Sequence record: NC_041937.1
Source of the DNA: Escherichia phage V18
Length of the DNA: 64,000 nucleotides
Strand: one strand, 5' to 3'
The translations under genes were made by a program, and so were the position numbers. The notes under the pieces were generated by a model. That model did no database searches and was not told the origin of the DNA. It was given only the letters and a program-made list of their open reading frames with translations. Shown piece by piece: positions 1-57,028 of the stretch (position 1 is its first letter; each line of letters begins with the position of its first letter).

Positions 1-31
1 AAAAGCCCCCGCCGAAGCGAGGGCAAAACAG

Positions 32-1064
32 TTACTTCAGTTTCTCTTGCAACCCAGTAACAACCTCTGTCAATTTTTTAACCTGCTCCTCAAGGGCGGT
101 TATTTTATCATCCTGCTCCCTGCAAACCTGGACAAGCAAGCCTGTTACAGCTGCGTAATCCACGCTGTAGAATCTTTCCTCTGTTATCAAAGGAGTTCCA
201 TCTTGATCAGGGTTTGGGATTTCCTTTCTTTGCACGAAAGAGCTAACTGCTTCCGGCAGCGCTTCAAGCACCTCTTGTGCTATAACACCTGCATAAGGCA
301 TACCATTCTCTTTCAAGGTGTAGGTATAACCCTTCATCTTACGGATAGCTTCTAACGCATCAGGAATAACAACTATGTTATCTTTCAGGTCTCTGTCAGA
401 ACTCTGATTGACAGATGTGCAATTCACAGCACCGTTTACAGAAAGATATCTTGATTTATCCGGCAAGGTACCGCAATGCCATACATAAGCTGATTGAGAC
501 TCGTCAAGAACCTTAAACTCTAGCACGTTTGGACGAGTCCCTGCACTGCCGTTGCCCCAATAATGCTGCCATCTGGAAAGCGTAGTTTCCAGAAAATGCC
601 ACAGACAACCCGCCAACAACCATTGAACCTTCAGGTCCGTTGACGTTGCCAGCCAGTATTTTGGATGGGTTGTTAGGCCCAAACTGGTTGTTCCAGTCTG
701 CACCAGTATGACATACAAAACCACCCGGTGCTGAGAAAGTGCCATCTTTGTTGAAGTTGTAGAATCTATGAGCTGTGCCTACAACATCGCGAACGATAAC
801 TTGACCAGCTTCCGGAGTAGATCTGAACTCTGCCTGGCCTTGCAGTCTTGCACCATTACCACATTTAGAGGTAAAGGTGTTGTTGATCAGATCCTCTGTT
901 CCTTCTGATGCAGCTTGGAACCCTGCGTTAGAGAACAGTGCTTTTCTAGTGGTCTGACTACCAGGACAAATGTAGTCAATACCGTCTGCCCAAAGCTCGA
1001 CTTTAGGCATGTTCATTTTGCTCATCACTGCATAGCGTTCAGGAGTCCCCAGGTAGTGCCACAT
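32..1064 (-). CDS. distal tail fibre protein with C-terminal intramolecular chaperone-like domain; reading frame changes near 540-560 (ORFs 513-1064 and 32-745)
   Basis: C-terminal SDRDLKDNIVVIPDALEAIRKMKGY followed by coiled coil resembles the self-cleaving chaperone domain of tail fibres/endosialidases; two overlapping ORFs in different frames. Confidence 0.5.
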
Positions 1065-1163
1065 AGTTCCACCACCAGTGTAGAAACCTGATGTTCCTTT
1101 GAACTCAACCAGAGGTCTGGTGTTTGTTACATCATCACCTTTGATTGCAAGACTTGGAAAGAA

Positions 1164-2963
1164 TCACCTCTGTCTGTCCAGCCACCAGTTCTGTAGTGAC
1201 ACTGTAGTGTAGCACAGTTCATTGGGTCCCCCTACAGTCCTGGCACTGGTACCACCACAAGCTATCGGTAGTGGTTCCCATTTGGCTTTCCGGTTGTTAT
1301 AAACACCCCATTCCAAACTGCCGTTACCGGATTCGTCCATCCCGCCATCCCAGATGACCATCTTGGCGGCTTTCTTAGATCCCCAGAAACCTCTTTCTGC
1401 TCCTGAACTGCGGATCCATTCTCCAAGTCCCCAGTTTGCCAGCTGACCGTTCAGATCACCAACCTGCATATATTTAGGACAATCTAAGACCCCATCCTCA
1501 CGGAAGCCTAAATATCTATGAGTTTCAGATCCTTTTGCGCCTTTGTGCAGGTGGATTGTCAACCAAGCCTTATTGTCGTTTCTTACCTCAGAGTAGATCC
1601 TATACCCATGCTCAAGGACACCGTCAGCGCTGTATTTGTCCCCGTTAACAATACCTGATGCTGACTTAACATCAGCAGAACTTTGAGACAGGTAAAGGTG
1701 CCCAAAGGTAGGGGAGTTTCTAGACCCGAGACCGATGTGTGCTCTAAAGGTATCATCGTTACGAGGTCTGACCATCGGCTGCCATGCAGTCCACTGATTT
1801 GTGTTGGCCTGGTAGGTTCTCAAATACCAAACATCTACGTTAGAGAATGGATAGTATTCCTGACGACAACCTGTACCGCCGTTAGCATTGTTCTGCCAAA
1901 CAATCAAGTGACCAGCACCAGAACCTGCAGGGTAACCATTTGCCTCAGTTGCATAGGCAGTCATCGGCTGGTAGTACACACCATCCTGATTACCAGTTAA
2001 GTTATTGATATTGAAATTTGGCTCAAGGGCTGCACGTTGCTTATAGAAAGCCCCCAAGTTAATGCGTGAACCTGCGGCATCCCTGGCACCTGTGCCGCCT
2101 TGCTCTATAGCAAGAGGTTGCCACGAAGCTGTTTGTTGGTTCCACATACCCCAACGGCCTGTTGCATCAAGCTGCAAGTACCCTGCTGTGTTTAAATCAT
2201 CTCCAGCACGGATAACTGTTCTTGTTGGGTTGTTTGCCTCTAGGCGTTTAAATTCATCACGAAGTGCTATTCTTTTTGTTGTTGCTACACCGTTGGTTAC
2301 TGCAATGGTATACATGGCTCCGGTGGTAGCGCCACGGAAAATACCATCAACAGTTGTAGTATCACGACGAGATACCACACCATTCAGAAATTTTTCACCA
2401 GCTGCTACAGAAGGGTAGTTGGTAGTTCTTCCCTCTTCAATAACTGCAGGGCCAACAAAGTTATCAAGGTGAATAACATCGCCTACAGTGTGCACTGTAC
2501 CAAAATCTACACGCTGTGCAAGGGCTTTAGCATCGTTAGCTGTCTGAACAGTAACATCCATTACATCCTGGACAGACTGCCCTTCGGCTGTCATAATCAT
2601 AGATGCGCCAATGGTAGATTCCAGCTCCTCCCTTAAGGACGGATCTGTATATACCATCCATGCAGCGTCAGTAATCCCACCATCGGAGTACGGTGAAGAT
2701 AGTGCAGGGACAGTGTGTGGAAATTCGCCTTTCCAACGCAGGTAGAGGTCTTCCTCTTCGAAGTAGGCAAAATCCATTGGGCCGTTTAACTTACCACCTT
2801 CCTTAAAGGAGATTACATGAGAAACAGTCCCATCCACATGGACAACATCGCCAATTTTTACACGACGAGTCAGGTCTGGTTGTTGAACAACCAGGTAATC
2901 ATCCTCTGTCACTGCGGTAGTGGCAGGAAGAGATTCAATTCTGACAACTTTAATATCAGCCAT
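1164..2963 (-). CDS. tail fibre protein
   Basis: 599 aa; N-terminus DDYLVVQQPDLTRRVKIGDVV shared with ORF 5598-6266; GGTGA(R) ... NLG fibre motifs (QGGTGARDAAGSRINLGA, ACGGTSAR). Confidence 0.7.
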   Translation of the reverse strand: MADIKVVRIESLPATTAVTEDDYLVVQQPDLTRRVKIGDVVHVDGTVSHVISFKEGGKLNGPMDFAYFEEEDLYLRWKGEFPHTVPALSSPYSDGGITDAAWMVYTDPSLREELESTIGASMIMTAEGQSVQDVMDVTVQTANDAKALAQRVDFGTVHTVGDVIHLDNFVGPAVIEEGRTTNYPSVAAGEKFLNGVVSRRDTTTVDGIFRGATTGAMYTIAVTNGVATTKRIALRDEFKRLEANNPTRTVIRAGDDLNTAGYLQLDATGRWGMWNQQTASWQPLAIEQGGTGARDAAGSRINLGAFYKQRAALEPNFNINNLTGNQDGVYYQPMTAYATEANGYPAGSGAGHLIVWQNNANGGTGCRQEYYPFSNVDVWYLRTYQANTNQWTAWQPMVRPRNDDTFRAHIGLGSRNSPTFGHLYLSQSSADVKSASGIVNGDKYSADGVLEHGYRIYSEVRNDNKAWLTIHLHKGAKGSETHRYLGFREDGVLDCPKYMQVGDLNGQLANWGLGEWIRSSGAERGFWGSKKAAKMVIWDGGMDESGNGSLEWGVYNNRKAKWEPLPIACGGTSARTVGGPNELCYTTVSLQNWWLDRQR

Positions 2964-2998
2964 TCTTTCTCCTGAAAGGGGGCAAACAGCCCCCTATG

Positions 2999-5596
2999 TT
3001 AAAGGTACAATCCACGGTATTGAGCATAAAGGCCTAGACCGCGAAGGATTTCGCCAGAGTGATAGCCAACCGGGTCAGAAACTGCCCAGCAGCCGTTTAA
3101 AATATTATCCCCATTAATGAAGTGGTGCTTTTGCAGTAGCTTCACACAGGCTTCCACAACAATATCTATTTGAGGTATTGTCTCTGAATACCCGCAAAGA
3201 CCTAGCCAGCAGCAACCTGCAAGCCATTCACCTACCACCCACATCCTGTCTCCTCTGTCCTGATAAGAATATCCCCCAGAGGTGTTAAAGTCTGTAGGCA
3301 GATTTCCTGAATGAGATGACTGGAATCTGTTGAGGAACCATGCCCATTTCTGGCAGAACAGGAATAGTCTTTCATCAACAGGTTCTTTATGTTTCTTGAG
3401 CTCATATATTGTGCGGCACGCAGCAACAAAAGATCTTGACTGGAGCTTAGAGTTATCTACCATCTCCCACCAACCAGTCAACCCTTCATTACCTCTTTGC
3501 CATACATAACGTGAGGCAACTGGACCCTCTGTCTTAAATGTATTATTATACCAGACTTGAGCGTCATACAGAAAGCCTATTGTATTTGACAATCTATGGC
3601 GATCTATGTTTTCTGCACCCATGCAGTAGACTGCTGGGTATTGCATGCCAGGGTAGGGCCAATTTGGCTTTTCCTCTAAGAGATAGTTTTCCTTATCTAT
3701 CATCTTTCCGGCAGGGAACACACCCGGTGTGTGCCTGTATGCACCTTGCTTGTAGTTTCTGACATAGCAATCTCCAACCTTAGCGGTTGATTCTGTCTTG
3801 CTTGCCATCCATACACTAAACCAGATTAGATAAGCATCCCTATCTGCAATATAGAATTGCGGCAGCGTGTTGACGCAATATAGATCAAACAAGCCATTAC
3901 CTATCTGCCTGTCGCTTAGGCTGAAATCTACAGAGGTGAGCCCCTTAGGATTAGCAAAGAAAGGTTTAATCTCTTCTTCGGTGTGGTGAGGTTGTGTCGG
4001 ATCTAGTTTGAAATCTCCTAGAGTAAGAGTTTCTGTTATCCATTGTCCATTAGTGGCATATAGATCAGCATACCATAACCACCTGTCTTTGTCAAGAAAT
4101 TTGACCCTTACCATCTCATCATCTGATCGATAAGTTACTGAGTTTAAAGAAACCTCTCTTCCAAAATTGAAAGTTACTTTACCTCTTGCTATATTACAAC
4201 GGGTGAAGTTGTCAGAGTGGTTGTAAATGTCGGTATCATACTGCATACTGACACTAGCGCCACCGCTCACGGCAATGTTTTCCTCTTTAGGTAAGAGATA
4301 CGGATTACCGTCTTTACCAACCACCTCTACAAAATCAGTAACCTTGGCAACTGTTTCTGTTACCTCTGCCCCTCCAAAAGGGACACCTATTCTGTACTGT
4401 TTTTTGTTATTGTTACCATCATTAAGGATGAAATGTGGTTGGAACAGAACCCCTTCTCCTCCGAAATTCATAACAATTTCAGCATCTCTGCCTATTTTGT
4501 ATGTAGTCCCTTTTTGGATTATTTCGCAAGGCTGGCGTGCGTTCATTCTAAAATTGATATATCCGTCACTATCCCTACTCATGACAGGTACTGTTCCTGC
4601 AACTAGACAAGTGCCATCTGTGAACGGGGCCTTAATCAACGTGGTCTTTCTGAACAGCTTGTCGTAGGCATTTATATCACTAAAATTAAGCAACTTATTG
4701 TAAGACTGCTTAAACGCGGTGTAATACTTTTCCTCACCTGTCAAGGTATAGAGTTGATAGCAAGCGTCACACCACATCTCTTCCCCGTCTAACTCTGTGG
4801 CTTGATTGTCTGCAACCACATTTATAGGATTTACAATTACAGGGGATCCAGCAGGTATCACCGATCCACCCTGCTCTTGTGGCAATCTCACACAGTAGGT
4901 CACCTTGTGGCTGCCTGTAACACCCTTATCCTGCAGTTGGATTGTGCCGAACTCTGCAGACGTATGACCACTATCGGCTATGCTACCGTTGGCCCAATAG
5001 CGGTTACCATCCCATGCTATATACCACTCAACCCACCAACTTAACCCGGATGTTGTCCAATCTGGGTTAGCATCTGTGCCACCGTAAACATCAGAGTCTA
5101 CAGTGTTTCTTCCTAATACACCGTTATATGCTTGAAATGCCTTGTCCAGGTATTCCCCCCATGTCGGAGATCCAGCTGGGATTTTTCCTCTACCATTGGT
5201 AAAAGATACCACCACATCTTTAAACCCACCATGTGATGGAACCCCATCTGTGGATAGAGGGTAGTGGGACAATCTTTGCATTTTACTTTCTACTGCATAT
5301 GCACCCAAAAGATGACTATTGTAAGCTTCCCAAGCATCTTTTGCCCTATCCAAGTAGAAATCGCTTTTCGATGCCCTGTATGCTTCAATGTACCCCAGAA
5401 TCAACACAGCTTGGGACTCATGCATTGCCCAATCATTATTTATCTTATTACCTGCCCACCCTGCAGCTATAAGACCATCAGGGTTTACTAGCTTATTTTG
5501 TGTGGGAGTGTTGGTAATACCTGTGTTGTTATCGAGGCACTTCCTGTGCCCCTCAATCATCTGAAATACGTTATCAATGTTGTGTTGAATACGCAT
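2999..5596 (-). CDS. putative tailspike / receptor-binding protein with possible polysaccharide-degrading domain
   Basis: 865 aa immediately downstream of a fibre-anchor ORF (stop and start 1 nt apart); N- and C-terminal regions look like alpha/alpha-barrel glycosidase folds; function unverified. Confidence 0.45.
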   Translation of the reverse strand: MRIQHNIDNVFQMIEGHRKCLDNNTGITNTPTQNKLVNPDGLIAAGWAGNKINNDWAMHESQAVLILGYIEAYRASKSDFYLDRAKDAWEAYNSHLLGAYAVESKMQRLSHYPLSTDGVPSHGGFKDVVVSFTNGRGKIPAGSPTWGEYLDKAFQAYNGVLGRNTVDSDVYGGTDANPDWTTSGLSWWVEWYIAWDGNRYWANGSIADSGHTSAEFGTIQLQDKGVTGSHKVTYCVRLPQEQGGSVIPAGSPVIVNPINVVADNQATELDGEEMWCDACYQLYTLTGEEKYYTAFKQSYNKLLNFSDINAYDKLFRKTTLIKAPFTDGTCLVAGTVPVMSRDSDGYINFRMNARQPCEIIQKGTTYKIGRDAEIVMNFGGEGVLFQPHFILNDGNNNKKQYRIGVPFGGAEVTETVAKVTDFVEVVGKDGNPYLLPKEENIAVSGGASVSMQYDTDIYNHSDNFTRCNIARGKVTFNFGREVSLNSVTYRSDDEMVRVKFLDKDRWLWYADLYATNGQWITETLTLGDFKLDPTQPHHTEEEIKPFFANPKGLTSVDFSLSDRQIGNGLFDLYCVNTLPQFYIADRDAYLIWFSVWMASKTESTAKVGDCYVRNYKQGAYRHTPGVFPAGKMIDKENYLLEEKPNWPYPGMQYPAVYCMGAENIDRHRLSNTIGFLYDAQVWYNNTFKTEGPVASRYVWQRGNEGLTGWWEMVDNSKLQSRSFVAACRTIYELKKHKEPVDERLFLFCQKWAWFLNRFQSSHSGNLPTDFNTSGGYSYQDRGDRMWVVGEWLAGCCWLGLCGYSETIPQIDIVVEACVKLLQKHHFINGDNILNGCWAVSDPVGYHSGEILRGLGLYAQYRGLYL

Positions 5597-7004: not shown

Positions 7005-7682
7005 TTAGTGTGGTCCACTTGTCTCGCCATCAGGGCAAGAGTGGGTATGACCTTTATATTCTGCATAGAATGAATCCAAATCCACACCAGCAGCAGTTAT
7101 AATTCTACCAGATGGGTCTATTGTGGCACCATTCATTCTGATATTTCCATCCACAGCAGCTCGCAAATTGGCAGCCCCATTAGTGAAAGAAAACTCCCCA
7201 CTGCTGTCGCACCGTAATGTCCCACCAGGTGTTTGAAGCTCAAAATCGCCAGAAGGTGTCAGTTTAAAATAAACCCTATCATTCCATAACTCTACGTTAT
7301 CAGGATCGATCTGTAAAGAGTTTGAGTCTGAATGAACAGAGGTGATTGCCCACCCTGGAAACAGGCCGTGAGTTTGTTGATCGTCGTTATTGTTTTCATT
7401 TCTCTCTGAAAACTGCAATCCTACAACATCTCCGGCCTTAATAGGAAGTGTTAACCTTGCCTTTCCGCTGTTTGCAGACATCACCTGAATTGGAACGTCA
7501 TAGATAAGAGGGTATCTCTCCACATCTCCGTCATCAAACGTGGTTTCAGCTATTGGCTGCACGGCTGCAGAAGGAATACTGTAGTCAACACTGACAACTC
7601 TGGCCCTGATGCTGGTGTGGTAGTCCCTCATTATTTTTTCTATAAAGGATCTTACAGCAGCGTCTTTCCTATTTATTGCCAT
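7005..7682 (-). CDS. putative baseplate central spike (gpV-like)
   Basis: 225 aa; beta-rich repeat region and His-rich C-terminal tip (YKGHTHSCPDGETSGPH) typical of spike tips; GAGGAGG RBS upstream. Confidence 0.5.
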   Translation of the reverse strand: MAINRKDAAVRSFIEKIMRDYHTSIRARVVSVDYSIPSAAVQPIAETTFDDGDVERYPLIYDVPIQVMSANSGKARLTLPIKAGDVVGLQFSERNENNNDDQQTHGLFPGWAITSVHSDSNSLQIDPDNVELWNDRVYFKLTPSGDFELQTPGGTLRCDSSGEFSFTNGAANLRAAVDGNIRMNGATIDPSGRIITAAGVDLDSFYAEYKGHTHSCPDGETSGPH

Positions 7683-7685
7683 TAT

Positions 7686-8679
7686 ACCTCCTCAGTTTTG
7701 TCAACAACTCCACCCACTGTTTCCCCAAGGCCAAGCTCTGTAGTGTAATCACCGCCTTCTATGGTGCCCTTATGATGCACCGTGATCACCTTATAGAAGC
7801 CTGTATATTGCTTGCTTTTAAGATAAATAGTGGACTCTGGGAGGATAGCTCCGTTAAGGCATGTGGTTACAGTAAGACCGACATCCTCTCTCGGGTTTTT
7901 CTTTTTCTTACGTGTGCCACCTTTCGCAGCAGCTTTAGCTTTTCGTTTTTTAGCAGGCTCGGGGTTTTTAGGGTGGGAGATCCGTGCATCCCAGACTCTG
8001 CACTTATTTCAAACACAGAGTCCTTGAACCTTTTTCCAACCTTGGTCCAATACAAAGCCCCATCCTGAACGCTAAATGTGGAGTTGGTCAGTCTTGCAAA
8101 CCTGCGGAGGTTCTCTGCAGTGTTTCCAGAGAAAGCCATAGAGTATTGCAAAGTCTGGTTTCCAAAACCAACAACCCTACCTTTTGGCAAGTTCATATCC
8201 TTCAGTAGGTCATTAAGCACAGAGTTCAGAGGTGTGCCTTTCTGATAAGATCTTGTGCTTTGGCACTTAATGATGTTCTCAGTACCATCCCCGAAGATGA
8301 ACTTAGTTTTTCTGGTCGGACCTTCCCATCTGTCTTCAACAAACTCTACAGTTCCGGAGAATATCAACTGGTTCTCATCATCATAGCCAGCTTCAAACAT
8401 AACTGCAAGGGCATCAGCCTGATGCATATCCAGATAGTTAACTGTATCGTCAGACAGGTTGTAAACTGTCACATAACCTTTGTTTGGCTCTTTGGTATTG
8501 TCCTTTTGTATGTCAAACTCTATATTGGCGGCACCAGTGTCTGAGCTAACTTCATAAACTCCGGAATCACTCTCCCCTTTCTTTTCAACAGATTTTGGGA
8601 TATTGGTTTTTGATTTACCGCCATGCTCTACCGGACGACCAAACAATAATCGCCATGTTCTACGTCTGTACTCTGCCAT
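7686..8679 (-). CDS. putative baseplate/tail protein, apparent frame change near 7930-7990
   Basis: 270 aa ORF 7867-8679 ends in an implausible basic tail; another frame stays open to 7686 and encodes a Lys/Ala-rich linker plus C-terminal domain. Confidence 0.4.
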
Positions 8680-10059: not shown

Positions 10060-11559
10060 TTACCAAAGGTCGGTAGACATGAAGTTGATATCTTTGCTGT
10101 TCTCCCACTCAAGTTTTGCATCAAGTATTTTGCTAAACTCACCCTCATCTATGGAAAGCGTGATTTTCCCATCACTGATCTCTAAAGGTAGCATTTCCAT
10201 AGTTCTTAATTGAGAAGCAAAACCAGGGCCACCTGGCAACGGAAGAGTCCCGCCCGGCAAAGTGTCCAAAGGATTAACAAACCCGTTACCTCCCGATATG
10301 ATATCTTTGCGAATCATATCGCTGATAGTATCCAGTTGCTGATTTCTTTCACTCAGTGGGTTGAAACGGTCATTAAATAATTCCCCGGCGCTTAATATTG
10401 TACCGATAATGCCCAGCTTGCCGAGCAGACCAACTTTACCACCAGGTGTCTTGAGGCCACCTCCACCTTTTCCTGCCGCGCCACCACTACTAGATCCTTC
10501 TGCAGTAGCGGCACCCGCTGCTCCAGCTGCACCCCTTAGAGAGTTAAGGAATTTAAAGGTTTTTACAAGCATAGATGCCATGACAAAACCTTTTGTTAGG
10601 GCGTTGACTACCAGCATGATGGCAGCAGCAAACCCTGCCCATTTAGCATAGCTAAAGGTGTCATGAAGCTCTTCAGAATATTCCTTCGTCTTAGCTGTTA
10701 TGAATCCCCATTTAATCCCCCATTCAAGGAAAAACATGCGGATCTTGACTATAGTGTTGTTTAGTTCACCAACTACCCAGTTAAGGCCTCTCACAAACCC
10801 ACTAACAAAATCACCAGAGGCATCCCACACAAATTGCAGAGTCTCACCAGTGCGGATTAATGTATAATAGAACTCTGTTAGTTCGTCAGACCAACGGGTG
10901 AACAGTTTCTGACGAGTCAGTTCGATGAAGGTTTTCAGTCTGTTTTCTGCCAGCACGTTAGACTTCTGCATTCTTTCATAACCAGCTGCAGATGCCTCGT
11001 TCATGTACTTAGCCACATACTTCATGATCTTGGCTGTTTTAACCTCACCTTTCTTCATCATGTCCATGAACTGATCCATGGATAGTTCAGAAAGACCAAA
11101 AGCCTCTTTAGTGGCCTTGATAAAAGGTTCGTATGCACCAGGCAAGGCTTCAGCAAGTTGTTGCTTCAGTTCTTCGGACATTACTTGTCCCTTGCCAAGC
11201 ATCTGTTGGATTGCCATAATACCGCGCTGGTATTTTACCTCATCAGCACCATAAGCAGCAGCATACTGGGAGTATGCAGAAAACAGCTCATGCACTTCCT
11301 GATTTGTCATCTGGTTTTTGGCGTTTACCGACATCTGGGCGTAACCTTGAAGACCAGATTTGAGATCAAAACCAAGACGCATAGCCTCTTGCTGGACAAA
11401 CGCAACCTCACTGTTGGCTTTGTTTGGATCTCCAGTAACAGCAGTAAGAGCAGCACTTGCCCCCTCCATCATGTGACCGGATCTGTTAACCGCAGCAAAT
11501 CCAGAAAAAGCTGTATACGCAGCTGTTGCATTAATAACAGATCTACGTAAGTCTCTCAT
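10060..11559 (-). CDS. tape measure protein
   Basis: 499 aa; long helical protein with hydrophobic segment and Gly-rich stretch (GAAGAAGAATAEGSSSGGAAGKGGGG); sits after tube and chaperone genes. Confidence 0.65.
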   Translation of the reverse strand: MRDLRRSVINATAAYTAFSGFAAVNRSGHMMEGASAALTAVTGDPNKANSEVAFVQQEAMRLGFDLKSGLQGYAQMSVNAKNQMTNQEVHELFSAYSQYAAAYGADEVKYQRGIMAIQQMLGKGQVMSEELKQQLAEALPGAYEPFIKATKEAFGLSELSMDQFMDMMKKGEVKTAKIMKYVAKYMNEASAAGYERMQKSNVLAENRLKTFIELTRQKLFTRWSDELTEFYYTLIRTGETLQFVWDASGDFVSGFVRGLNWVVGELNNTIVKIRMFFLEWGIKWGFITAKTKEYSEELHDTFSYAKWAGFAAAIMLVVNALTKGFVMASMLVKTFKFLNSLRGAAGAAGAATAEGSSSGGAAGKGGGGLKTPGGKVGLLGKLGIIGTILSAGELFNDRFNPLSERNQQLDTISDMIRKDIISGGNGFVNPLDTLPGGTLPLPGGPGFASQLRTMEMLPLEISDGKITLSIDEGEFSKILDAKLEWENSKDINFMSTDLW

Positions 11560-12395
11560 GCATCGCCTAGTGTAAGCGTTTGGCTGGTGGCACTTTTAAA
11601 TCCAGACTGCAGTGCTGACAGGTGGGCGTTAAAGGTTGACTTTTTCATCTCCCCGCGAGCAAACCTGGACTCTAACTCTGAGTATCCTGGCAAGCTTCCA
11701 CGGAATCCGGCCCCATACTTGGCAGAAAGTCTTATCGCGGAGTTGTAGAGGTGGGTTCTTCTTGCCTCACGATCCGACATAAGCCTATTATCCATACCAG
11801 CTTTACCGTCCCTTCTTAGCTGTCTATGATAACGATTCATAGCAGCTGTCTGAGCTTTTACAAGATTAGGGTCGGAAGCCACACCACCCATATTAGGGTT
11901 ACCGGGGATATATTTGAAAGCTTTGGCATTAGCCAGAACTCTTGCCTTAGGTGCCTTATAACCGCCGTAAGACACTGGTGCAGATTTGGCAGCCTTTTTG
12001 GCCTCTTTAGCTTGCTGCTGGTAGAACTTACGCATCCTAGCCATTTCTGGATTTTTAGCGGTAAGATTACCTACAGCTTGTTTACGTCTCGCATTCTCCC
12101 TACGTTCTATTGCAGCCCTTACTGCAGCCTCTTTCTTGGCCTGTGCTACGCTCTCCCTGTGCAGCTTAGCATTTGCCTGAGATTGCTGTCTGGCAACCCG
12201 CTGCATTGTCTGCTGGGTTTTAACAGCTACCGCCTGCCATCTACTCATGGGGTTGGCTGAGTTAAAATCCTCACCTAGTTTCCTGAACTCCCTCCCAATA
12301 CTGCGAATTTTCTCTACAGCTTTTTTGTAGGAGGAGTTCTCTATCTCAAAGCCAATCTTGTTGACTGTTGTGGCAACTATTTTGTTTGTAGCCAT
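11556..12395 (-). CDS. tape-measure-associated basic coiled-coil protein (possibly N-terminal part of the tape measure)
   Basis: 279 aa Lys/Arg/Ala-rich helical protein; its stop overlaps the next start (ATGA). Confidence 0.5.
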   Translation of the reverse strand: MATNKIVATTVNKIGFEIENSSYKKAVEKIRSIGREFRKLGEDFNSANPMSRWQAVAVKTQQTMQRVARQQSQANAKLHRESVAQAKKEAAVRAAIERRENARRKQAVGNLTAKNPEMARMRKFYQQQAKEAKKAAKSAPVSYGGYKAPKARVLANAKAFKYIPGNPNMGGVASDPNLVKAQTAAMNRYHRQLRRDGKAGMDNRLMSDREARRTHLYNSAIRLSAKYGAGFRGSLPGYSELESRFARGEMKKSTFNAHLSALQSGFKSATSQTLTLGDA

Positions 12396-18387: not shown

Positions 18388-19212
18388 TTATTCACCACCT
18401 TTCAGAGTTGCTTTAACAACCAGCTCTGGACGGGTGTTAACTGCCAGCATGGAAGTTTCAGATTCAATCTTCTCTTCACGCAGGTATGCAGAGTGTTTAT
18501 ACCACATGTACAGTTCCTGTGCTGGAGTGTTTGCTTCGTTAACATCGTCTGCCGGAGCAAAGTGCAGCTGGAACATCTGATCAATACCCATCGGCAGAAT
18601 GCGAGCTTCTTTCTTAGGAATATTGCCAGAGATATCTTCGATAAAGGTGATACCTTTATGCTCAAACACACGGTATACGCTGTCTTGACCGCCAGCACCC
18701 AGACGGCGACGCAGAGGTTCCTGAGCAGAGCCGTAATAGGTGTATGCCAGTTCTACCAGAGGGTCATACTGACAGGTTGTGTCACCAGGTGCATAGGATT
18801 TACCCAGAATAGCCTGGAACAGCGCTTTCTCACGCAGTGCTTCATGAGAAACACGGATACGGCGAACAACGCGGGTTACTACGTCCTGAACAGTTTTCGG
18901 AGCATCAGGTGTGAAGTAACGACGGAAGTTCTGAACATCTGCTGCGGTGATGCCTTTGTCCAGAGGGAAGAACGGGATGTTCAGGTTTTTAACCTGAGCA
19001 CGTTCACTACCAACGTAGTTACGCTCACCACCACGACGGCGTGCCGGAATGTCGGTTACAACTTCATCAACACGCTCAATCTGAGCAATTGTTGAGGTGC
19101 CGAGACGGGTTTCGAACAGATCCATACCAGTAATCAGGCGGAATTGACGCGGAACAAGGTCCAGAGTAGCACCTAAATCAACAATGCCAAATTCATCTTT
19201 ACGAGTAATCAT
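18388..19212 (-). CDS. putative major capsid protein
   Basis: 274 aa; strongly biased GC-rich codon usage unlike neighbours (high expression); downstream of portal and head ORFs; perfect 10 bp GC hairpin terminator follows. Confidence 0.55.
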   Translation of the reverse strand: MITRKDEFGIVDLGATLDLVPRQFRLITGMDLFETRLGTSTIAQIERVDEVVTDIPARRRGGERNYVGSERAQVKNLNIPFFPLDKGITAADVQNFRRYFTPDAPKTVQDVVTRVVRRIRVSHEALREKALFQAILGKSYAPGDTTCQYDPLVELAYTYYGSAQEPLRRRLGAGGQDSVYRVFEHKGITFIEDISGNIPKKEARILPMGIDQMFQLHFAPADDVNEANTPAQELYMWYKHSAYLREEKIESETSMLAVNTRPELVVKATLKGGE

Positions 19213-19296
19213 TTATTTCTCCAAAGTAAAATTGTAGCCAGCATCGCTAGAATCAACTTTGCCGAGCACGATATCAGAATATTGAGCGGTAATCAT
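19213..19296 (-). CDS. small upstream ORF (27 aa) preceding capsid gene
   Basis: MITAQYSDIVLGKVDSSDAGYNFTLEK; shares GAAATAAATGATTAC initiation region with the capsid gene; may be leader peptide or non-functional. Confidence 0.25.
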   Translation of the reverse strand: MITAQYSDIVLGKVDSSDAGYNFTLEK

Positions 19297-19380
19297 TTAT
19301 TTCCCCCGTTAAACTCTTATGCTTCAGCAGATCCAGATACTCTTTAGTTTTGGTTGCGTCCCTTGATCAGGTTCCCTTCT

Positions 19381-19728
19381 TTATCGAAGAGATCCCAGCC
19401 TACCAATACAAGACTCTGCGTCAGCTTGCGCCCATTCCCAATCAGGATGCTCTTTAGCCCAAGCCTCCTCTTCAATCTCAAAACCAAGCATGTGTGCAAG
19501 TGCTTTAGCATCATCATACCACATATCGAAGAAACGACGCAAGTATTCTTCAAAACTAAGCTCCACAGTAACTTGGCGAAGTGCCTTAACAATATCGTCT
19601 GTTAACTGCTCAGGCTTAAGATCACTCTTCATCAAAAGAGATACAGGTCTGTTGTTAGCGCTATAGCCTTGCGCCTTATGGCACAGGGCAATCCCCTTCT
19701 CTTTAATAGTAATCGTTTTTTCAGACAT
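19381..19728 (-). CDS. hypothetical head protein
   Basis: 115 aa acidic ORF between portal and capsid genes. Confidence 0.4.
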   Translation of the reverse strand: MSEKTITIKEKGIALCHKAQGYSANNRPVSLLMKSDLKPEQLTDDIVKALRQVTVELSFEEYLRRFFDMWYDDAKALAHMLGFEIEEEAWAKEHPDWEWAQADAESCIGRLGSLR

Positions 19729-21873: not shown

Positions 21874-23429
21874 TTAGATAAAACGCTTGAACATAGAAGG
21901 TGATGAGATTGATGGAATCACACAAGGAAGTGCTACCTCCTCTTTCTCCAGGAAATTAATCGCAGAAGCTACACAGTCGGCCCAGTCGTCTTTTCTGTTA
22001 AATGTTGATCTTTCCCCGTTGAATTTTTCAAGTTCAGTCAGAAATGCTTCCAGAGTATCAGGATGGAAACTGGATTTTACAATCCTCACCATTCCTTGTT
22101 GGGCAAGATTGGCAAAAGGTGAGAACCTTGTCAGTTTAGATTTGTTGGAAGGCATTGGGTCTTCTTCAACCCTAAACCCTTCGGCAAGCAAGGATCTGGA
22201 GGAGGTTAAGAACTCACTCTTACCTGCCTGACCGGGGTCCACAGAGAATACGATTATACAATCATCACCATCAAACTGCGCCTGTTTCCTGATGATCACA
22301 TCTCGTTCACCAGCCTTTTTACAGAACTTGCCTTCCAGACCTGTGGAATACCTCCCGTCATCCACGTTCTCAGGACAATAATCCCCGGACAGGTAATAAA
22401 AGCCGTCGCTATCTTTACTTACCTTGACACTGGCGGTAAAGTCAGGAAATTTATTACCGGAAGTTCTCTCGGTTCCTGCTTTATCCCATGCCCTGCAAGA
22501 CACTGATCCAAGGGGTACTCTATCGGCATCACGAAGGAAAGATCTTTGAAAATAGTTTGCACCCTCAGGCTTTGCAAACCAGTTACCATGGAGAAGCTGA
22601 GCTTTTTCAAGCTCGGGCAGACCTTCAAGGAAAGCAAGGTATTCTGGGTTGTCTCTTAAGCAGACAGGATTATCGAAGATTGTTGCGCCTATAAACGAGA
22701 ATGACAACGGTCTCGGCTTGATCTCTACACCCAGTCCGTTAACCGTGGTGTATTTCTCTATCAACTCTTCTTTAGAGTCTCCCCAGATAAATTCACCGTC
22801 GCGTCGGATAAAATATCTTTTCTTACCGCATTTCTCCGGATCTGGATACCCTTCATCGTCCAACCACCACCTAACCAGTTTGGCAAGCATGTGTTCTGAA
22901 TCGGGGTTACAGCTGATAACCATTCTTGATGGATACTTTGACTGAGATCTCAGACGAGACATCAGATAGTCTATCTGCTCCCATTCGAACTGCGTGCCTC
23001 ATCGAAGCAAACCAAGCAAACCATGGTATACTCAAGCCCTTGATGGTTAAGCTTATCTTGTACATACTCCATGTGGCAGTATTTTACAACAGCTCCCTTT
23101 TTGCTTCTATCCCACTTGCCAGTGTTCGGATCAAACCGTGGAAAAATGAACTTATGATCCTTCTCTCTGAACTTTGGCTTAATGTTTTCAGGCAGATCAC
23201 TATAAATAGCTACTGCTTTAGGCCATAGTCCACCCTCACCTTCCAACTGTGGGGTTGTTCTTCGGAACATAACCACAGAGCTGTGGGGGTCATCAATAAT
23301 TTTAAGTGGCATCAATTGCAAGAGGAACGACTTGCCAGACCCTGCGGCACCGCCGATTACCAAAATATCTGCATCGTTTTCGAGGATCATCTTCTGCTTT
23401 TCAGAACACGGTCCGTAAATCTTAGACAT
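21874..23429 (-). CDS. terminase large subunit, split into two frames (ATPase ORF 22971-23429, nuclease ORF 21874-22962)
   Basis: Walker A GGAAGSGKS and Walker B CLVCFDEA in N-terminal ORF; other frame continues ...EWEQIDYLMSRLRSQSKYPSRMVISCNPD after a single frame change. Confidence 0.75.
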
Positions 23430-24770: not shown

Positions 24771-24867
24771 AAAAAGGTGCTAGGTGATGGAATCGAACCA
24801 CCTATGTATTCAACGACCAATAGATTTACAGTCTACACCGCTACCTCTACGGGATAACTCCCCAATT
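24771..24867 (-). tRNA. tRNA-like element with Tyr(GUA)-type anticodon arm; acceptor stem not resolved
   Basis: Anticodon arm GTAGA-CTGTAAA-TCTAT and T-arm GGTGG-TTCGATT-CCATC present, long variable region, but 5' and 3' ends do not pair; may be degenerate or mis-folded by me. Confidence 0.3.
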
Positions 24868-28928: not shown

Positions 28929-29606
28929 ATGACAAATGAGGAACGTATGATGAAGTATTTTAATGCAGACGACCTAGTTGACAAAGGTCTTGTAACCAGC
29001 AGATATTACACAGATCTTGGGTTAAAGATCTATAAATATGCCAGAAAAGTATTTTACAACAATTTATGGCATTTGTCCCCTCGTTTACTGGAGTGCCGAG
29101 GCATTGTTGTCGGTAATGAAGGAAATGTTGTGGCATGGCCCTTCACAAAAGTGTTTAACTTGGGAGAAAACTCCACCAACCTGTCTGACAATAAGCTTGT
29201 GACGGCGGTAGAGAAAAAGAACGGATTCCTTGGTGTGGTATCATCTCATAAAGGTGAACTATTGTTCTCAACAACCGGATCTCTTGATTCTCCATATTGT
29301 AACCTCGCAAAGGAAACCATCCAGGAGCAATGTGGTAATTTAGATCTTATCAAGAAGGTTATGGGCAATGAAAACATGACATTCATGTTTGAAATTTGTC
29401 ACCCTTCAGATCCGCATATTGTTCAGGAAGATCATGGCGCATATTTGATAGGTTGCAGGTATAATGATTCTGGAATAATGCTACCAGAGGCAGCTTTAGA
29501 TGGGATTGCCAAATACCTTGGTGCAAAACGTCCTCACACTGTGCGTGAAATTCCGTTCAGCTATGCAAAAGAATTGGCTGCAGAAACAAGAGGTGAAGGT
29601 ATATGA
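28929..29606 (+). CDS. putative RNA/DNA ligase-like nucleotidyltransferase
   Basis: 225 aa; candidate motif I lysine in VEKKNGFLGV (KxNG); divergent from kinase/phosphatase operon; assignment tentative. Confidence 0.45.
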   Translation: MTNEERMMKYFNADDLVDKGLVTSRYYTDLGLKIYKYARKVFYNNLWHLSPRLLECRGIVVGNEGNVVAWPFTKVFNLGENSTNLSDNKLVTAVEKKNGFLGVVSSHKGELLFSTTGSLDSPYCNLAKETIQEQCGNLDLIKKVMGNENMTFMFEICHPSDPHIVQEDHGAYLIGCRYNDSGIMLPEAALDGIAKYLGAKRPHTVREIPFSYAKELAAETRGEGI

Positions 29607-29863
29607 TTCGTAAGCCTTACTATCCTTATGATCTGCAGCTGAAGATTAAGTCTCCATACTATCTGGCACGGAAGGCCGTAATGAGGGGTAAAGCTTGGAA
29701 GATTTGGGATGATGATATCTTTAAACGTGTTGACGAAGAGTTTTACGGCATGGTAAACTTCATTCGTAGCAATTACACAGAAGATGTGTGGAACTGCCTC
29801 CTGGAGCAGGAACGCCGTGAGATACTTGACTGCTATTTCCACAACGAGGACTATATGCAATGA
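29603..29863 (+). CDS. hypothetical protein
   Basis: 86 aa ORF translationally coupled to ligase-like gene. Confidence 0.4.
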   Translation: MIRKPYYPYDLQLKIKSPYYLARKAVMRGKAWKIWDDDIFKRVDEEFYGMVNFIRSNYTEDVWNCLLEQERREILDCYFHNEDYMQ

Positions 29864-32276: not shown

Positions 32277-33598
32277 TGCATCAGATCAAAACAACACTGT
32301 ACGCACTGAACAAAGATGGCAGCTACCAACAGTGGAAAGTATTCACGGATGGTGATAAGGTTATCGTAGAGTTTGGCAAGCTTGATGGTAAATTGCAATA
32401 CAAAGAGACGATCTGCACACCTAAGAACGTTGGTCGCGCCAATGAAACTACAGCTGAGCAACAGGCCGAGCTGGAAGCGATCAGTAAGTGGGAAAAACAG
32501 GTCCGACTCGGGTACGTGGAGAGTATGGAAGATTGTGAGCAAGGTGTTGATCTTTTACCAATGTTAGTGCATGACTACCTGAAGCGTGGCAAGGCACTTA
32601 AATTACCTTGCTGGATCTTGCGTAAGTTAGATGGCCTTCGTCTACTTGTTGTTTTCCAGAATGGTGAGCCTAAATTTATTTCCCGTGGTAATAAATCCTA
32701 CCCTATTCAAGGAAAGCTTTTGGAGCAACTTCGCTCTTTCCACCTAACCACCGGGATTAAACAGCTCGACGGAGAGCTCTATATTCATGGTCTGCCTCTG
32801 CAGAAAATAGTGTCTCTTGCTAAACGGTGGCGCACACAGGAAGAAATTCAGGCCGAGATCGATAAAGACTACGAGGCAGATAAAAAACGCCGTCAGGCTG
32901 CGATTAAGGCAGGTTTAGCAACATACAAAAACTTCAACAAGATGGATATTCCTGTTGATGTTGATCCTGTTCGTGATGATTTGCGTTACGGAGGGTACTG
33001 CAGCTACGACCTAGAGTATCATATTTTCGATATCCCTAGCGATAAGGTGTGGTGGGATCCTGAAACAGAGTCTGGTCGCTGTAAGGATCTTATGGAGGCA
33101 AACGGTGCTATTACTTCTTTGATGCTTGATCATATTAAGGTTGTTGATGCAGAGCTTGCATATACGGTTGATCGGTGCGAAGAGTCTGTTGGTATATTTA
33201 TGTCTGAAGGATATGAAGGTACCATTATGCGTAACTTCTGTGGTAAATATGAGTATGGTCAGCGAACATCTGAAGCATTGAAATGGAAAAAGTTCAACGA
33301 CGCAGAGGTGAAAGTTATTGACGTTGAGAAAGATAAGAATGATGAAGGTGTTCTTATCTGTGTTGACAAGGAAGGTGTTGTTGTTAAAATGAAGATGAAA
33401 GGCACGCACGAGGAGCGTAGCTATGACAGGATGCAGGAAATGATCGGCAAGTTTGTCACCTTCAAATATCAAGCAAGGACAGAAGACAACAACTACCAAT
33501 TCCCGGAGTGGTGGGATGCTGTATGCGTCAGAAAATCCGCAGAATATGCAAAACATGATGATTCGTTGGAAGAGTGGTTTAATCGGAGGTTTAAATGA
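32276..33598 (+). CDS. ATP-dependent DNA ligase
   Basis: 440 aa; motif I KLDGLR, motif IV EGYEGTIMR, motif V KWKKF. Confidence 0.75.
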   Translation: MHQIKTTLYALNKDGSYQQWKVFTDGDKVIVEFGKLDGKLQYKETICTPKNVGRANETTAEQQAELEAISKWEKQVRLGYVESMEDCEQGVDLLPMLVHDYLKRGKALKLPCWILRKLDGLRLLVVFQNGEPKFISRGNKSYPIQGKLLEQLRSFHLTTGIKQLDGELYIHGLPLQKIVSLAKRWRTQEEIQAEIDKDYEADKKRRQAAIKAGLATYKNFNKMDIPVDVDPVRDDLRYGGYCSYDLEYHIFDIPSDKVWWDPETESGRCKDLMEANGAITSLMLDHIKVVDAELAYTVDRCEESVGIFMSEGYEGTIMRNFCGKYEYGQRTSEALKWKKFNDAEVKVIDVEKDKNDEGVLICVDKEGVVVKMKMKGTHEERSYDRMQEMIGKFVTFKYQARTEDNNYQFPEWWDAVCVRKSAEYAKHDDSLEEWFNRRFK

Positions 33599-34074
33599 AG
33601 CTAGATAAAAATGTACAATTGAGAGCATTTTTTTCGATGATTTCACACTCAGAAGGTACTGACAGGTATGGTGGCGAAGATGCTTCGTACCACATCCTTG
33701 TTGGTGGAAAATACATAGAGGATCTCAGCAGGCATCCCGGTATTTATGTCAAATTAAGACCGGGCCTTACCTCTTCAGCATTTGGCAGATACCAAATTCT
33801 GGAGAAATACGCTAAGCATTACATGAAGCAGCTTGGCTTAAGAGATTTTGGTCCGGCAAGTCAAGATGCCATAGCAAAACAGTTGATCCGCGAATGTAAA
33901 GCCCTTGATGACATTTATGAAGGAAGGATCCGTTCAGCTATCTATAAATGCCGTAGCCGTTGGGCAAGTTTCCCACCACCACCGGGGGCTGGTAAACTGT
34001 ATGATCAGCGTGTAGAAAACATAGAGAAGATGCTGGACGTCTTCCGAAAAGCCGGAGGCACAGTACTGGATTAA
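33595..34074 (+). CDS. endolysin (lambda R-like lytic transglycosylase)
   Basis: Aligns by eye with lambda R: SHSEGTD, ILVGG, SSAFGRYQIL, KQLGLRDFGPASQDAIA, WASFPPPPGAG, KAGGTV. Confidence 0.75.
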   Translation: MKLDKNVQLRAFFSMISHSEGTDRYGGEDASYHILVGGKYIEDLSRHPGIYVKLRPGLTSSAFGRYQILEKYAKHYMKQLGLRDFGPASQDAIAKQLIRECKALDDIYEGRIRSAIYKCRSRWASFPPPPGAGKLYDQRVENIEKMLDVFRKAGGTVLD

Positions 34075-47410: not shown

Positions 47411-47689
47411 ATGAGCTGCGAAAAATCTTTTTTCATCATCATTTACGGTAAGGATAACTGCCCACACTGTGTCAGAGCAAAAGAATTTGCAATCAGCAAA
47501 GGTCTGCCTTTTGTATATAAGACACTTGGCGATGGCTACACAAAAGAAGAGCTTATTGAGAAGTGTAGTCCAATTGTCCCCAGAACGTTGCCGCAGATCT
47601 TCTTAGAAAGCGATCTTGACAGTATCCATATAGGCGGTGCCGACGATTTCATCTCTTTTGTTAAGAATGGTTTTGGAGAGAAAAAGTGA
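47411..47689 (+). CDS. glutaredoxin/thioredoxin-like protein
   Basis: 92 aa; redox motif YGKDNCPHCVRAK (CPHC). Confidence 0.65.
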   Translation: MSCEKSFFIIIYGKDNCPHCVRAKEFAISKGLPFVYKTLGDGYTKEELIEKCSPIVPRTLPQIFLESDLDSIHIGGADDFISFVKNGFGEKK

Positions 47690-49808
47690 AAGTTGTAAAA
47701 CGGGACGGTAGAGAAGAGTTCTATAACGGAATTAAGGTGATCAAGGCGGCAGAGTCCGCCTTACTTGAGTCTGGACATACTGAAGAAGAAGCTTACCGGA
47801 TCGCCTGCGCGGTTAATGAAGTTGTTGCTAACAATCTACCAACCGACCAGTGCACGATCTCTGTAAAAAATATCCATATCCTTGTTGAAGATGCTCTTAT
47901 GGATATGGGTTTAAAATGTGCAGCCAGAGAATACATCCAGTATAGACAGACAAGAGATAATAACAGAGAGGCAGGTGGAAAACTGCTTGCAGATATTAGT
48001 GGCTTCTTGGATCGAACTTGTGATGAATTTACAAAAGAAAACGCAAATAAGCCCACTAATCATGTACACACTCATCGTGACCTGCTTGCAGGCATCCTTA
48101 GCAAACACCTTGCATCAACACAGATCCTGCCAGACCGTGTTTCAGAAGAGCACAATAAAGGCTTCATCCATGTGCATGATCTTGACTACTTGATCAGTCC
48201 GTTAACAAACTGTTGTTTGGTAAATTATCCAGATATGTTGGAAAACGGATTCAACATTGGCAACGCCCATGTCAGTAAGCCGAAGTCAATAGGGGTTGCA
48301 ACAACAATCCTTAGCCAAATCTCTAGTGCGGTAGCTAGTGCTCAATATGGTGGTCAGACTATGAGCCATATTGATCATTATCTGGCACAGTATGCTGAAG
48401 CGACCTATGAGAAGAACCTTAAATTTTGCCAGGAACATTGGTTGCCAGATGCTGAGACTGTTGCAATGCAAATGACAGATAAAGACGTGTTTGACAGCAT
48501 GCAGACGTTGCTTTATCAGATCAACACACTAACCTCGGTAAACGGTAACCCCTTTTATCACATTAAGTTTAGGTTTGGACACTTCGGTCTTTGGTAGAAT
48601 GATTACCAAAAACTACCTGAAAGTCCACAAAATGGGTCTTGGTGAAGAACGTATTACACCTGTGTTCCCTAAAGTGCTGTTCTTCCTAGAAGAGGGTGTC
48701 AACATGAACCCTGGGGATCCTAACTACGATTTGAAACGATTAGCTCTGGAATGCTGTGCAGAACGTATCTACCTGACTTCGTATCTGTACCACTAAATAG
48801 AAAAGTGACAGGCTCGACAGATGGCAAAGTAACGAGCATGGGATATGTAGAAGTTTCTTATCGAAATATAGCGACCCTGTAACAGGCGAGGAGAAATACC
48901 TTGGCAGATTTAACTTAGGCGTTGTTAGCCTTAACCTGCCAATGATTGCGGCAAAAGCTAAGACGGAAGGTGTTGATTTCTTTGCAGTTCTTGACGAATA
49001 CTTGGATCTTGCATACGAGGCTCACCTTGTAAGGGTTAATCGTCTAAAAGGAACAAAGGCGGGGCAGAACCCCATCATGTGGTGTGAAGGCGCTCTTGCT
49101 CGCCTGGATCCCGAAGAGAGTATTGATAAACTCTTCTATGACGGGTACGCTTCCATCAGTATTGGGTATATCGGTGTGTATGAAACCTGTCAGATTTTGG
49201 GTAGAGAAGGCGACAAGGCTTTAGCTCTTGGAATCCTTCAGCACATGAGAGATGCTTGTGAGCGATACAAGAAGGAAAGTAGACTAGCATTTAGCTTGTA
49301 CGGCACTCCTTCTGAGAGTCTATGCTATAAAGCTGCAACCTGTCTGGATCGTGAATATCCGGAAGTGTTGAAGCACGAGCATGAATATCTCACCAACAGT
49401 TTCCATCAGCCAGTATGGATAAATAGCTCTCCTTTTGATAAGTGGGAGTATGAGGAAGGTTTTGCTATGATCTCCTCTGGTGGCAACATCGGATACGTAG
49501 AGACACCTAACCTGAAAAACAACCTGGATGCTTTAGAGGCCCTTGTTGACTTCGGGTATAAACACATTATGTATTTTGGTATTAACCAACCTGTAGATAA
49601 ATGTCTCAAGTGTGGTTTCTCTGGTGAGTTCAGTGCAACAGCTAAAGGCTTTGTATGCCCAGAGTGTGGAAACCATGAAGAGGGAACGATCAGTGTAATT
49701 CGACGTGTGTCTGGATACCTTTCCAGTCCTAACTCCCGTCCTTACAATAAAGGTAAGCAAGCGGAAGTTATCGAGCGAGTTAAGCACTACGGAAGTTGTG
49801 GTTGCTGA
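47686..49808 (+). CDS. nrdD: anaerobic ribonucleoside-triphosphate reductase, interrupted by three frame changes
   Basis: N-terminal ATP-cone; segments resembling E. coli NrdD (ERIYPDF...KVTGS, CRSFL, RFNLGVVSLNLPMIA, glycyl-radical RVSGYL, CxxC zinc ribbon) lie in frames 1, 2, 1 and 0. Confidence 0.7.
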
Positions 49809-51021: not shown

Positions 51022-51809
51022 ATGGGTCGAGCTAAAGAAACAAAACGCATGCGTGATGAAGCTAGAGAGGCTCGCAAATCTGATCGCCTGCGTAAGGCTG
51101 CTGAGAAATTTGCTGACGAACGAGAGCACACTGCTCCAGCTCTCCGACCAATGAATAAGAAGCAGCAAAAGTATCTTGATTACCTAGGGTCGCGTAAAAT
51201 TATCATTGTAAACGGAGTGTTTGGGTCTGGTAAAACATTCATGGCATCTGCTATGCAGGTGACCTTCTGCGTAAGAATGAAATTGATAAGATCATTGTTG
51301 CACGTCCTTACGTTCAGACAGGAAAGACTTCAGGATTTAAACCTGGAAATGCAATGCAGAAACTGTGGCCCTATCTTCGAAGCATGATGGACACGATTTG
51401 TCGTCGTGTTGGCAAAGGTGCTTTTGCCGCAATGCTGGGAGACGGTCAGAACAGCCGTATCGAGATTTGTGAAGTTGAAAGCATTCGTGGTCGTAGTTTC
51501 GATGAGCGATGCTTTGTCCTGATTGACGAGGCACAGCAAACTAACCCTGAAGAAATGTTGTCAATTATCACAAGGATCTCTGATCAAGCCACCCTTGTAA
51601 TTATGGGTGATAATAGCCAACGTGACATCCCTGGTAAATCTGGCCTTGCATGGGTGACGGATTTCTTTACTCGTCATCCAGATCCTGAGGTTGGAATGAT
51701 CAGCTTTGATAGTCCAGACGATGTCGTTCGTTCTGGGTTGGGTCGTCAGATCGCACTCAATCTTATTGAGGATCGTGCAAATCATATTTGGACCCCTGTT
51801 TCCGAGTAA
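51022..51809 (+). CDS. phoH: PhoH-like ATPase, frame change near 51250
   Basis: Walker A GVFGSGKTFMA in first ORF; second frame gives KIIVARPYVQTGKTSGFKPGN ... FVLIDEAQ. Confidence 0.65.
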
Positions 51810-55142: not shown

Positions 55143-55238
55143 CAGGTATGCTTCTGATTAACTGGGAAGACCTCTATGGGCCTTTATGGGAAAAGAGCAT
55201 GTATTTAAAATGGTGCGTTAATTTAGGGAGGCCTTCCA

Positions 55239-56750: not shown

Positions 56751-56936
56751 ATGAAGCACTATTGCCTGTCTGGTAGAATGGGTACAGATTGTGATTGGGT
56801 TTTCTTAAAACTTGTCAGCATTCGAGAGTTCATCCCAGAGGAAGAGCAAGAAAGCGAGCTGATGTCATGGATCAACCATTACGGTAACACTTTTCGGCAT
56901 GTTAAGGTAGAAGAGTTGCCAAGCGAGGCTGATTGA
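56751..56936 (+). CDS. hypothetical small protein
   Basis: 61 aa ORF. Confidence 0.35.
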   Translation: MKHYCLSGRMGTDCDWVFLKLVSIREFIPEEEQESELMSWINHYGNTFRHVKVEELPSEAD

Positions 56937-56938
56937 CT

Positions 56939-57028
56939 ATGATTGCATCAATATTAACGTTTATGGGTGGCGTGGCATTCGGATTCATTGTTTGCCTGTT
57001 TATAGTGATTATGTCTATGCGAGGCTGA
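56939..57028 (+). CDS. small membrane peptide (29 aa)
   Basis: MIASILTFMGGVAFGFIVCLFIVIMSMRG; coupled between flanking ORFs. Confidence 0.25.
   Translation: MIASILTFMGGVAFGFIVCLFIVIMSMRG

Follow-up and report, generated by a model that had tools for sequence, protein, structure and literature searches.

The first 3 kb of the window (64,000 nt of record NC_041937.1, one strand, from Escherichia phage V18) raise the question of whether a tail fibre gene can change its reading frame internally and still be a working gene. V18 is a Vequintavirus, an rV5-like myovirus with a genome of 129,454 bp (GenBank KY683736). The original prediction placed a distal tail fibre with an auto-cleaving chaperone-like C terminus at 32-1064, written as two overlapping open reading frames (ORFs) with a frame switch between them. 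Such a switch could be a feature of the gene, the mark of a decaying gene, or a fault in the deposited sequence.

Extent and layout of the fibre gene

On the minus strand, three consecutive ORFs follow each other at 1164..2963 (599 aa), 513..1064 (183 aa) and 32..745 (237 aa), and the second and third overlap by 233 nt in different frames, in agreement with the predicted pair of overlapping ORFs. The gene itself proved to be considerably longer than the predicted interval. The minus-strand frame running from 2963 to 513 is open save for one TGA at 1164-1166, and homology to fibre genes extends upstream of 1064, through this in-frame TGA, to an ATG at 2963, which by homology is the real start. 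The ATG at 1064 is not a real start for the 183-aa ORF, as homology continues for 30 codons upstream of it. The disrupted gene thus occupies 32..2963 on the minus strand (2932 nt), and 32-1064 is just its 3' third. In the protein databases it is represented by the 183-aa (ASJ80398/YP_009602270) and 599-aa (ASJ80399) products, next to the 865-aa product of its neighbour (ASJ80400); an exact-sequence look-up of these three products matched V18 only.

Positions 1-3000 of the window match 121 phage records, and the best 30 of these 121 span about 3.88 kb where V18 has 3.0 kb. Annotations were inspected for rV5, VB-EcoM-WM, EduardKellenberger, Murica and navn. In each of them a single CDS of 3807-3819 nt, labelled tail fibre or lateral tail fibre, encodes a protein of about 1270 aa. 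Judged from its sequence, 32..2963(-) is the V18 orthologue of rV5 ORF41/gp41 (ABI79112.1; PHROG 6578), one of the hypervariable lateral tail fibres of Vequintavirus. V18 is colinear with rV5 gp41 and with its orthologues in Murica, VB-EcoM-WM, EduardKellenberger and navn at 93-97% DNA identity, and shares with them the position beside an ORF42-type gene, the N-terminal Tail_spike_N domain and the C-terminal S74 domain. The predicted tail fibre identity is supported by the PHROG 6578 match, by Tail_spike_N at the N terminus and by synteny with rV5 ORF42. What sets the V18 record apart from the rV5 type are three out-of-frame gaps, 881 nt in all, which leave ORFs of 599, 183 and 237 aa in place of the single uninterrupted ORF of about 1270 aa.

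The start signals of the fibre gene at 2968..2994(-) comprise a ribosome-binding site, AGGAGA (2973-2968), located 4 nt 5' of the ATG at 2963. Before this site stands a hairpin, GGGGGC-TGTT-TGCCCCC followed by TTT (2994-2975), at the end of the upstream gene 2999..5596. This neighbour is the 865-aa ORF42 homologue, a glycosidase-like tail protein. The Murica annotation has a ribosome-binding site and a terminator at places equivalent to 2968..2994. At the other end, directly downstream of the fibre gene, 1..29(-) is a likely rho-independent terminator with the hairpin GCCCTCGCTTCGGCGGGGGC followed by TTTT, the tail of which passes the window edge. A simple terminator scan of the window did not report it; only 4 T lie inside the window. 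It aligns with 2505-2533 of L009, the locus of phage Gotham (MT682716), overlapping the terminator annotated there at 2509-2528, and Murica has an annotated terminator at the equivalent place. The next gene downstream falls outside the window.

Base-level comparison with relatives resolves the V18 gene into four colinear pieces separated by three gaps that total 881 nt. The N-terminal piece (1232..2963, minus strand as are all the others) corresponds to aa 1-578 of the intact protein with 97.9% identity by blastx. It contains, at aa 46-103 (window 2655-2828), the Tail_spike_N attachment domain of TSP1/gp66 type (Pfam PF18668, E=1.1e-10), and the homologous region gives PDB matches to N-terminal segments of G7C gp63.1 and the CBA120 tailspikes. 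A 79-nt island follows at 1153..1231, equivalent to aa ~638-663 (DPMNCATLQCHYRTGGWTDRGDSFQ) and out of frame with both neighbours. The middle piece (566..1154) covers aa 742-~937 and is 99.7% identical to Gotham and 96% identical to VB-EcoM-WM; ORF 513..1064, as annotated in V18, is a sub-ORF artificially cut out of this piece. Finally, the C-terminal piece (35..565) represents aa 1094-1270 of the intact 1270-aa protein with 98.9% identity (blastx against the VB-EcoM-WM protein, and blastn), with the stop codon at 32-34. Overall, identity between the retained pieces and intact relatives is 96-99.7%, with no internal stops (blastn, blastx), and the pieces fall in order on positions 35-536, 695-869 and 1010-1202 of the 1210 positions of the PHROG 6578 profile. 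About 75% of the intact fibre protein is retained in the V18 record.

The gaps account for every break of the reading frame. At ~1229-1231, 179 nt are missing, at ~1153/1154 another 235 nt, and at 565/566 (junction 1) a further 467 nt, equivalent to aa ~938-1093 with a repeated domain included. None of these three lengths is divisible by three. Read in the upstream frame, the island supplies the stop codon of the 599-aa ORF, the TGA at 1164-1166, and the frame is restored past the island because 179+235=414. The 467-nt gap therefore produces the frame switch that had been predicted near 540-560; the switch is real as a property of the record, and homology moves it to 565/566.

Several simple explanations for the gaps were discarded. 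There is no microhomology at junction 1 and only 0-2 nt at the fibre junctions overall, so deletion or assembly collapse between internal repeats was ruled out. The V18 joins include one AT-rich 5-mer, and microhomology among them is near the chance expectation. The lost segments were searched for across the 64-kb window and were not found there, save for one 34-nt island in its proper place, so they have not been relocated within it. Nor are they distinctive in base composition (41-52% GC against a mean of 43%), which speaks against a composition-dependent dropout.

The C-terminal chaperone domain

Chaperone ends of the S74 type are well known in phage fibres. The chaperone-like module predicted for the C-terminal ~120 aa is real, and it is a known family in a known gene. 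The last 122 aa, from SDRDLK onward (codons 400..35), match Pfam PF13884 (Peptidase_S74) with 54.2 bits (E=1.8e-14) against a cut-off of 22 bits, over profile positions 1-57 of 58, so the HMM search that had been suggested as a check returned a clear match. The core of this intramolecular chaperone/auto-cleavage domain lies at 245..400(-). Within its SDRDLK motif, Ser is encoded at 398-400, Arg at 392-394 and Lys at 383-385, which provides the Ser and Lys five residues apart with a nearby Arg that characterize the family. In intact homologues the domain is likewise C-terminal, and in one of them, P0011, both Pfam domains are present again, S74 at aa 1149-1200. In relatives with inspected annotation S74 is fused in frame to the fibre, and it is out of frame in the V18 record owing to the 467-nt gap.

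The best solved relative of this region is gp37 of phage S16. The last 125 residues of the V18 fibre align with the S16 gp37 C terminus (PDB 6F45, E=2.6e-4), with SSDRRIK opposite SSDRDLK and the terminal helix included. The two share the SSDR..K motif and this helix, and differ in that S16 gp37 comes from another phage family and follows another upstream fibre. S16 also has a separate tip adhesin, gp38. The intramolecular chaperone (ICA) domain of MYRF, a eukaryotic homologue of the K1F endosialidase domain, matched the fibre C terminus weakly (E=0.14), and a direct phmmer match to the K1F endosialidase chain was not obtained. The V18 domain nevertheless has in common with K1F endosialidase and MYRF the PF13884 profile, the Ser-Lys spacing with its Arg, the helical tail and the C-terminal placement after a trimeric fibre; it is unlike them in that its similarity to solved ICA structures is weak and its cleavage is a prediction.

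In S74/ICA domains, the catalytic dyad consists of a Ser and a Lys five residues further on (S578/K583 in MYRF), an Arg stabilizes the oxyanion, and the dyad is thought to be positioned only upon trimerization (PMC3742443). By analogy, the Arg at +2 in SDRDLK is presumably the oxyanion Arg, and self-cleavage would be expected in the V18 fibre too. The intact fibre has its TSP1/gp66-type attachment domain at the N terminus, then a long shaft that contains repeated domains, and S74 at the C terminus. The chaperone would assist folding of the trimer, as inferred from what is known of the family; trimerization would position the Ser-Lys dyad, with the Arg at +2, for a cut at the conserved Ser, which would free the last 122 residues (encoded by 35-400). 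This domain had already been described for rV5 gp41, with pfam13884 at residues 1151-1200, in the paper on phage LL12, the gp41 of which is without an S74 domain (PMC7229145).

Internal repeats were also observed in the fibre. Residues ~318-395 and 971-1048 are 33% identical to each other, and 971-1048 lies inside the 467-nt gap. The motif W.PL...GGTGA occurs twice in the intact fibre, at aa 271-298 and 551-578. In the window, the repeat regions are found at 1779-2012 and 1227-1310.

The junctions in other phages

If the frame change were a property of the fibre family, its junction should recur among relatives. A 240-nt probe centred on junction 1 was searched against 50,697 phage records, and in 52 of the 52 records that cover it the probe appears as two pieces, 467-473 nt apart. 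The closest relatives in the protein cluster (P0002 and P0003) continue uninterrupted across this point. The junction sequences were not found in IMG/VR, in JGI metagenomes, in complete E. coli genomes or in the 50,697 phage records; the negative from IMG/VR is a weak one, with just two relatives of the fibre gene held there. One 22-mer match in a Fluviicola MAG is near chance level, which we estimate at ~0.1 per scan.

These data bear directly on the idea that the frame change is functional, be it as a programmed ribosomal frameshift or as a separate S74 module acting in trans. The 233-nt overlap of the ORFs invites this idea, as does the fact that some relatives, Gotham among them, have a separate small downstream ORF instead of a fused S74 domain. 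We consider it scarcely credible. The overlap is not conserved, since all 52 covering records have the 467-473 extra nt in frame, and the N-terminal ~60 residues of ORF 32..745, which show no homology, come from fibre sequence read in the wrong frame. Moreover, the Gotham downstream ORF follows a different, longer distal module, and the V18 fibre gene has two further frame breaks upstream. With an overlap unique to the V18 record, a programmed frameshift and a separate chaperone gene were both rejected. The predicted internal frame change is thus no feature of the gene family but marks the site of a 467-nt gap that occurs in the V18 record only.

Gotham carries a different allele of the fibre, at 2535-7312 of L009, with a 1481-aa fibre and a separate 110-aa ORF downstream. 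Its N-terminal and middle parts are common to V18, most closely at 566-1154, but it has no fused S74 domain and ends in a different, longer distal module where V18 has the S74-type end. It appears that the fused self-cleaving chaperone and the separate small gene of Gotham, possibly also a chaperone, are interchangeable fibre ends. Positions 1-565 of the window match S74-type phages only (95-97%) and have no counterpart in Gotham. This change of affinity, from 99.7% Gotham-like at 566-1154 to S74-type at 1-565, could suggest a mixed sample or a recombinant of the two alleles, resulting in a chimeric, out-of-frame consensus. However, homology between Gotham and the S74-type phages runs 132 nt past junction 1, which rules out this junction as the boundary of two fibre alleles. 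Mosaic identity is normal in the fibre gene, and a chimera would leave the other two fibre gaps, as well as the gaps in head genes described below, without explanation. This origin is very improbable, and it would in any case be a special case of an artefact rather than separate biology.

Truncated gp41 homologues are present in other public assemblies (P0003, P0007, P0013, P0014 and P0016-P0018). One of 653 aa has an in-frame deletion between two NQDGV motifs, and several end in out-of-frame tails (546, 620, 634 and 723 aa), some of them on several contigs each. They could represent recurrent real loss or recurrent sequencing error.

Damage elsewhere in the record and the origin of the gaps

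The fibre gene is not the only gene of the window with missing stretches. The major capsid gene (18388-19212) lacks 186 nt, or 62 internal aa, at ~18763 in comparison with Murica and rV5. The V18 capsid protein has 274 aa versus 335, is identical to that of Murica apart from its last residues, and gives a Phage_cap_E match that is split in two. The gap is unique to V18: the sequence across it was in two pieces in 13 of the 13 full-coverage matches listed, sampled down a ranking of ~100 records. In the head-decoration gene (window 19227-19395), a gap of 354 nt takes most of the gene. Three or four gaps have shrunk the homologue of rV5 ORF62 from 325 aa to a remnant of 115 aa; the islands left there, of 94, 42 and 34 nt, show 97-100% identity to relatives.

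Small lesions are numerous as well. Compared to Murica, the window has 21 single-base deletions, many of which take one letter from a short base run (GG to G, CCC to CC, TTTTTT to TTTTT). Under-calling of base runs is the usual error pattern of pyrosequencing and Ion Torrent data. Taking Murica as reference and ORFs of 150 aa or more as long, 14 of the 49 long conserved ORFs of the matching Murica region are broken up or cut short in the window, among them those for the baseplate hub, tape measure, capsid, large terminase (split into 362+152 aa), RNA ligase, a methyltransferase, PhoH and, in four pieces, the large subunit of the anaerobic ribonucleotide reductase (RNR). The affected regions are 7682-8679, 10060-12395, 21874-23429, 28929-29863, 47686-49808 and 51022-51809, among others, and most of the breaks are single-base deletions.

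V18 is a therapeutic and pharmacokinetic test phage that forms plaques and is stable for more than 1 year (PMC13304965, PMC7277081). A viable and stable phage cannot carry all such damage, from which we conclude that the deposited sequence is most likely faulty and that the fibre gaps, like those in essential genes, are part of this fault. We thus regard the frame switch and the fibre gaps as errors of the deposited sequence, rather than as a pseudogene or a programmed frameshift, with a probability of about 0.88, and infer a technical cause for the gaps. The deposited V18 sequence would be a consensus of low quality that lost some stretches and under-called short base runs. The exact route of error is a guess; one example is a reference-guided consensus from which uncovered stretches were dropped, and islands of 34-94 nt would fit such a procedure. 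The phage itself most likely produces a normal fibre of full length that processes itself.

Some features of the gaps sit less comfortably with an error in the sequence. Clean, repeat-free gaps are rarely produced by de novo assemblers, and the V18 junctions are without repeats. The large gaps cluster in the fibre gene, in head genes and in part of the early region instead of being evenly spread, a distribution not accounted for by simple low coverage.

A rival reading is that the three deletions are real, with gp41 of V18 a decayed pseudogene and one of three fibre sets lost. At most a 599-aa N-terminal stub would then be made, which would be unable to fold without the C-terminal chaperone. 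Genes of the gp41 type are hypervariable, the S74 domain is dispensed with in LL12 gp41 (PMC7229145), and on K-12-like hosts Vequintavirus may need the ECA-binding fibre alone (PMC8594841). With 0-2 nt of microhomology, the joins would also be compatible with illegitimate recombination. The out-of-frame truncations and the in-frame internal deletion seen in other assemblies point the same way, and they make a real loss in V18 not impossible. Against this stand the high identity of the retained pieces to intact relatives, without a single internal stop, and junctions common to no other genome searched. Like gaps hit the genes for the capsid, the head decoration and the ORF62 homologue in the same record, where the tape measure, baseplate hub and terminase are frameshifted too. 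Breaks in essential genes cannot all be real in a viable phage, so that real deletions find no reliable support in this record. We consider gp41 decay in V18 unlikely. That V18 has lost this fibre and yet kept a broad host range is, if anything, slightly more doubtful still.

The comparison with relatives brought up other differences that concern different parts of the window. In the tRNA cluster, a 403-nt gap at 24784-24817 is joined over ~34 nt of tRNA-to-tRNA similarity. ARAGORN calls just Met, Thr and Arg tRNAs in V18 versus 7 tRNAs in Murica; tRNA-Pro is left uncalled in V18, though its region aligns. The early region of small ORFs has gaps of 805, 144 and 209 nt at 55180, 56705 and 57216, and an insertion of ~96 nt at 56932-57019, all relative to Murica; these differences could be natural variation of accessory genes or more artefacts. 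The large terminase gene of rV5 has insertions of 979 and 311 nt, at sites equivalent to 22677 and 22995-23014, that V18 and Murica are without. One of them encodes an HNH endonuclease, and the rV5 CDS is annotated as joined from three pieces. Exactly at the second insertion site, V18 differs from Murica by -1 and +9 nt, which splits the ORF. For the endolysin of Murica type (36327-36797 of L005), the window contains no counterpart with more than 70% identity, and near 33504-33726 its DNA is just ~70% identical to rV5; this looks like a swapped lysis-gene allele and not a break. Finally, 17-18 records named 'Campylobacter phage' (MG0656xx, host C. jejuni) are 94-95% identical to V18 and have genomes of about equal size, which suggests mislabelling or contamination.

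Errors of the deposited sequence, as we read the fibre gaps, bring no new biology, and the practical point is the data quality of the RefSeq genome of a phage that patients have received. Fragments of the broken gene have passed into protein databases, as a 'tail fiber protein' of 183 aa (YP_009602270) and an 'endo-N-acetylneuraminidase' of 599 aa (ASJ80399). Were the deletions real after all, the hypervariable gp41 fibre set would be dispensable and, together with the truncated copies in other assemblies, this would mean that Vequintavirus sheds the gp41 fibre repeatedly. As it stands, the V18 record would mislead the prediction of receptor-binding proteins, the modelling of host range and the counting of pseudogenes.
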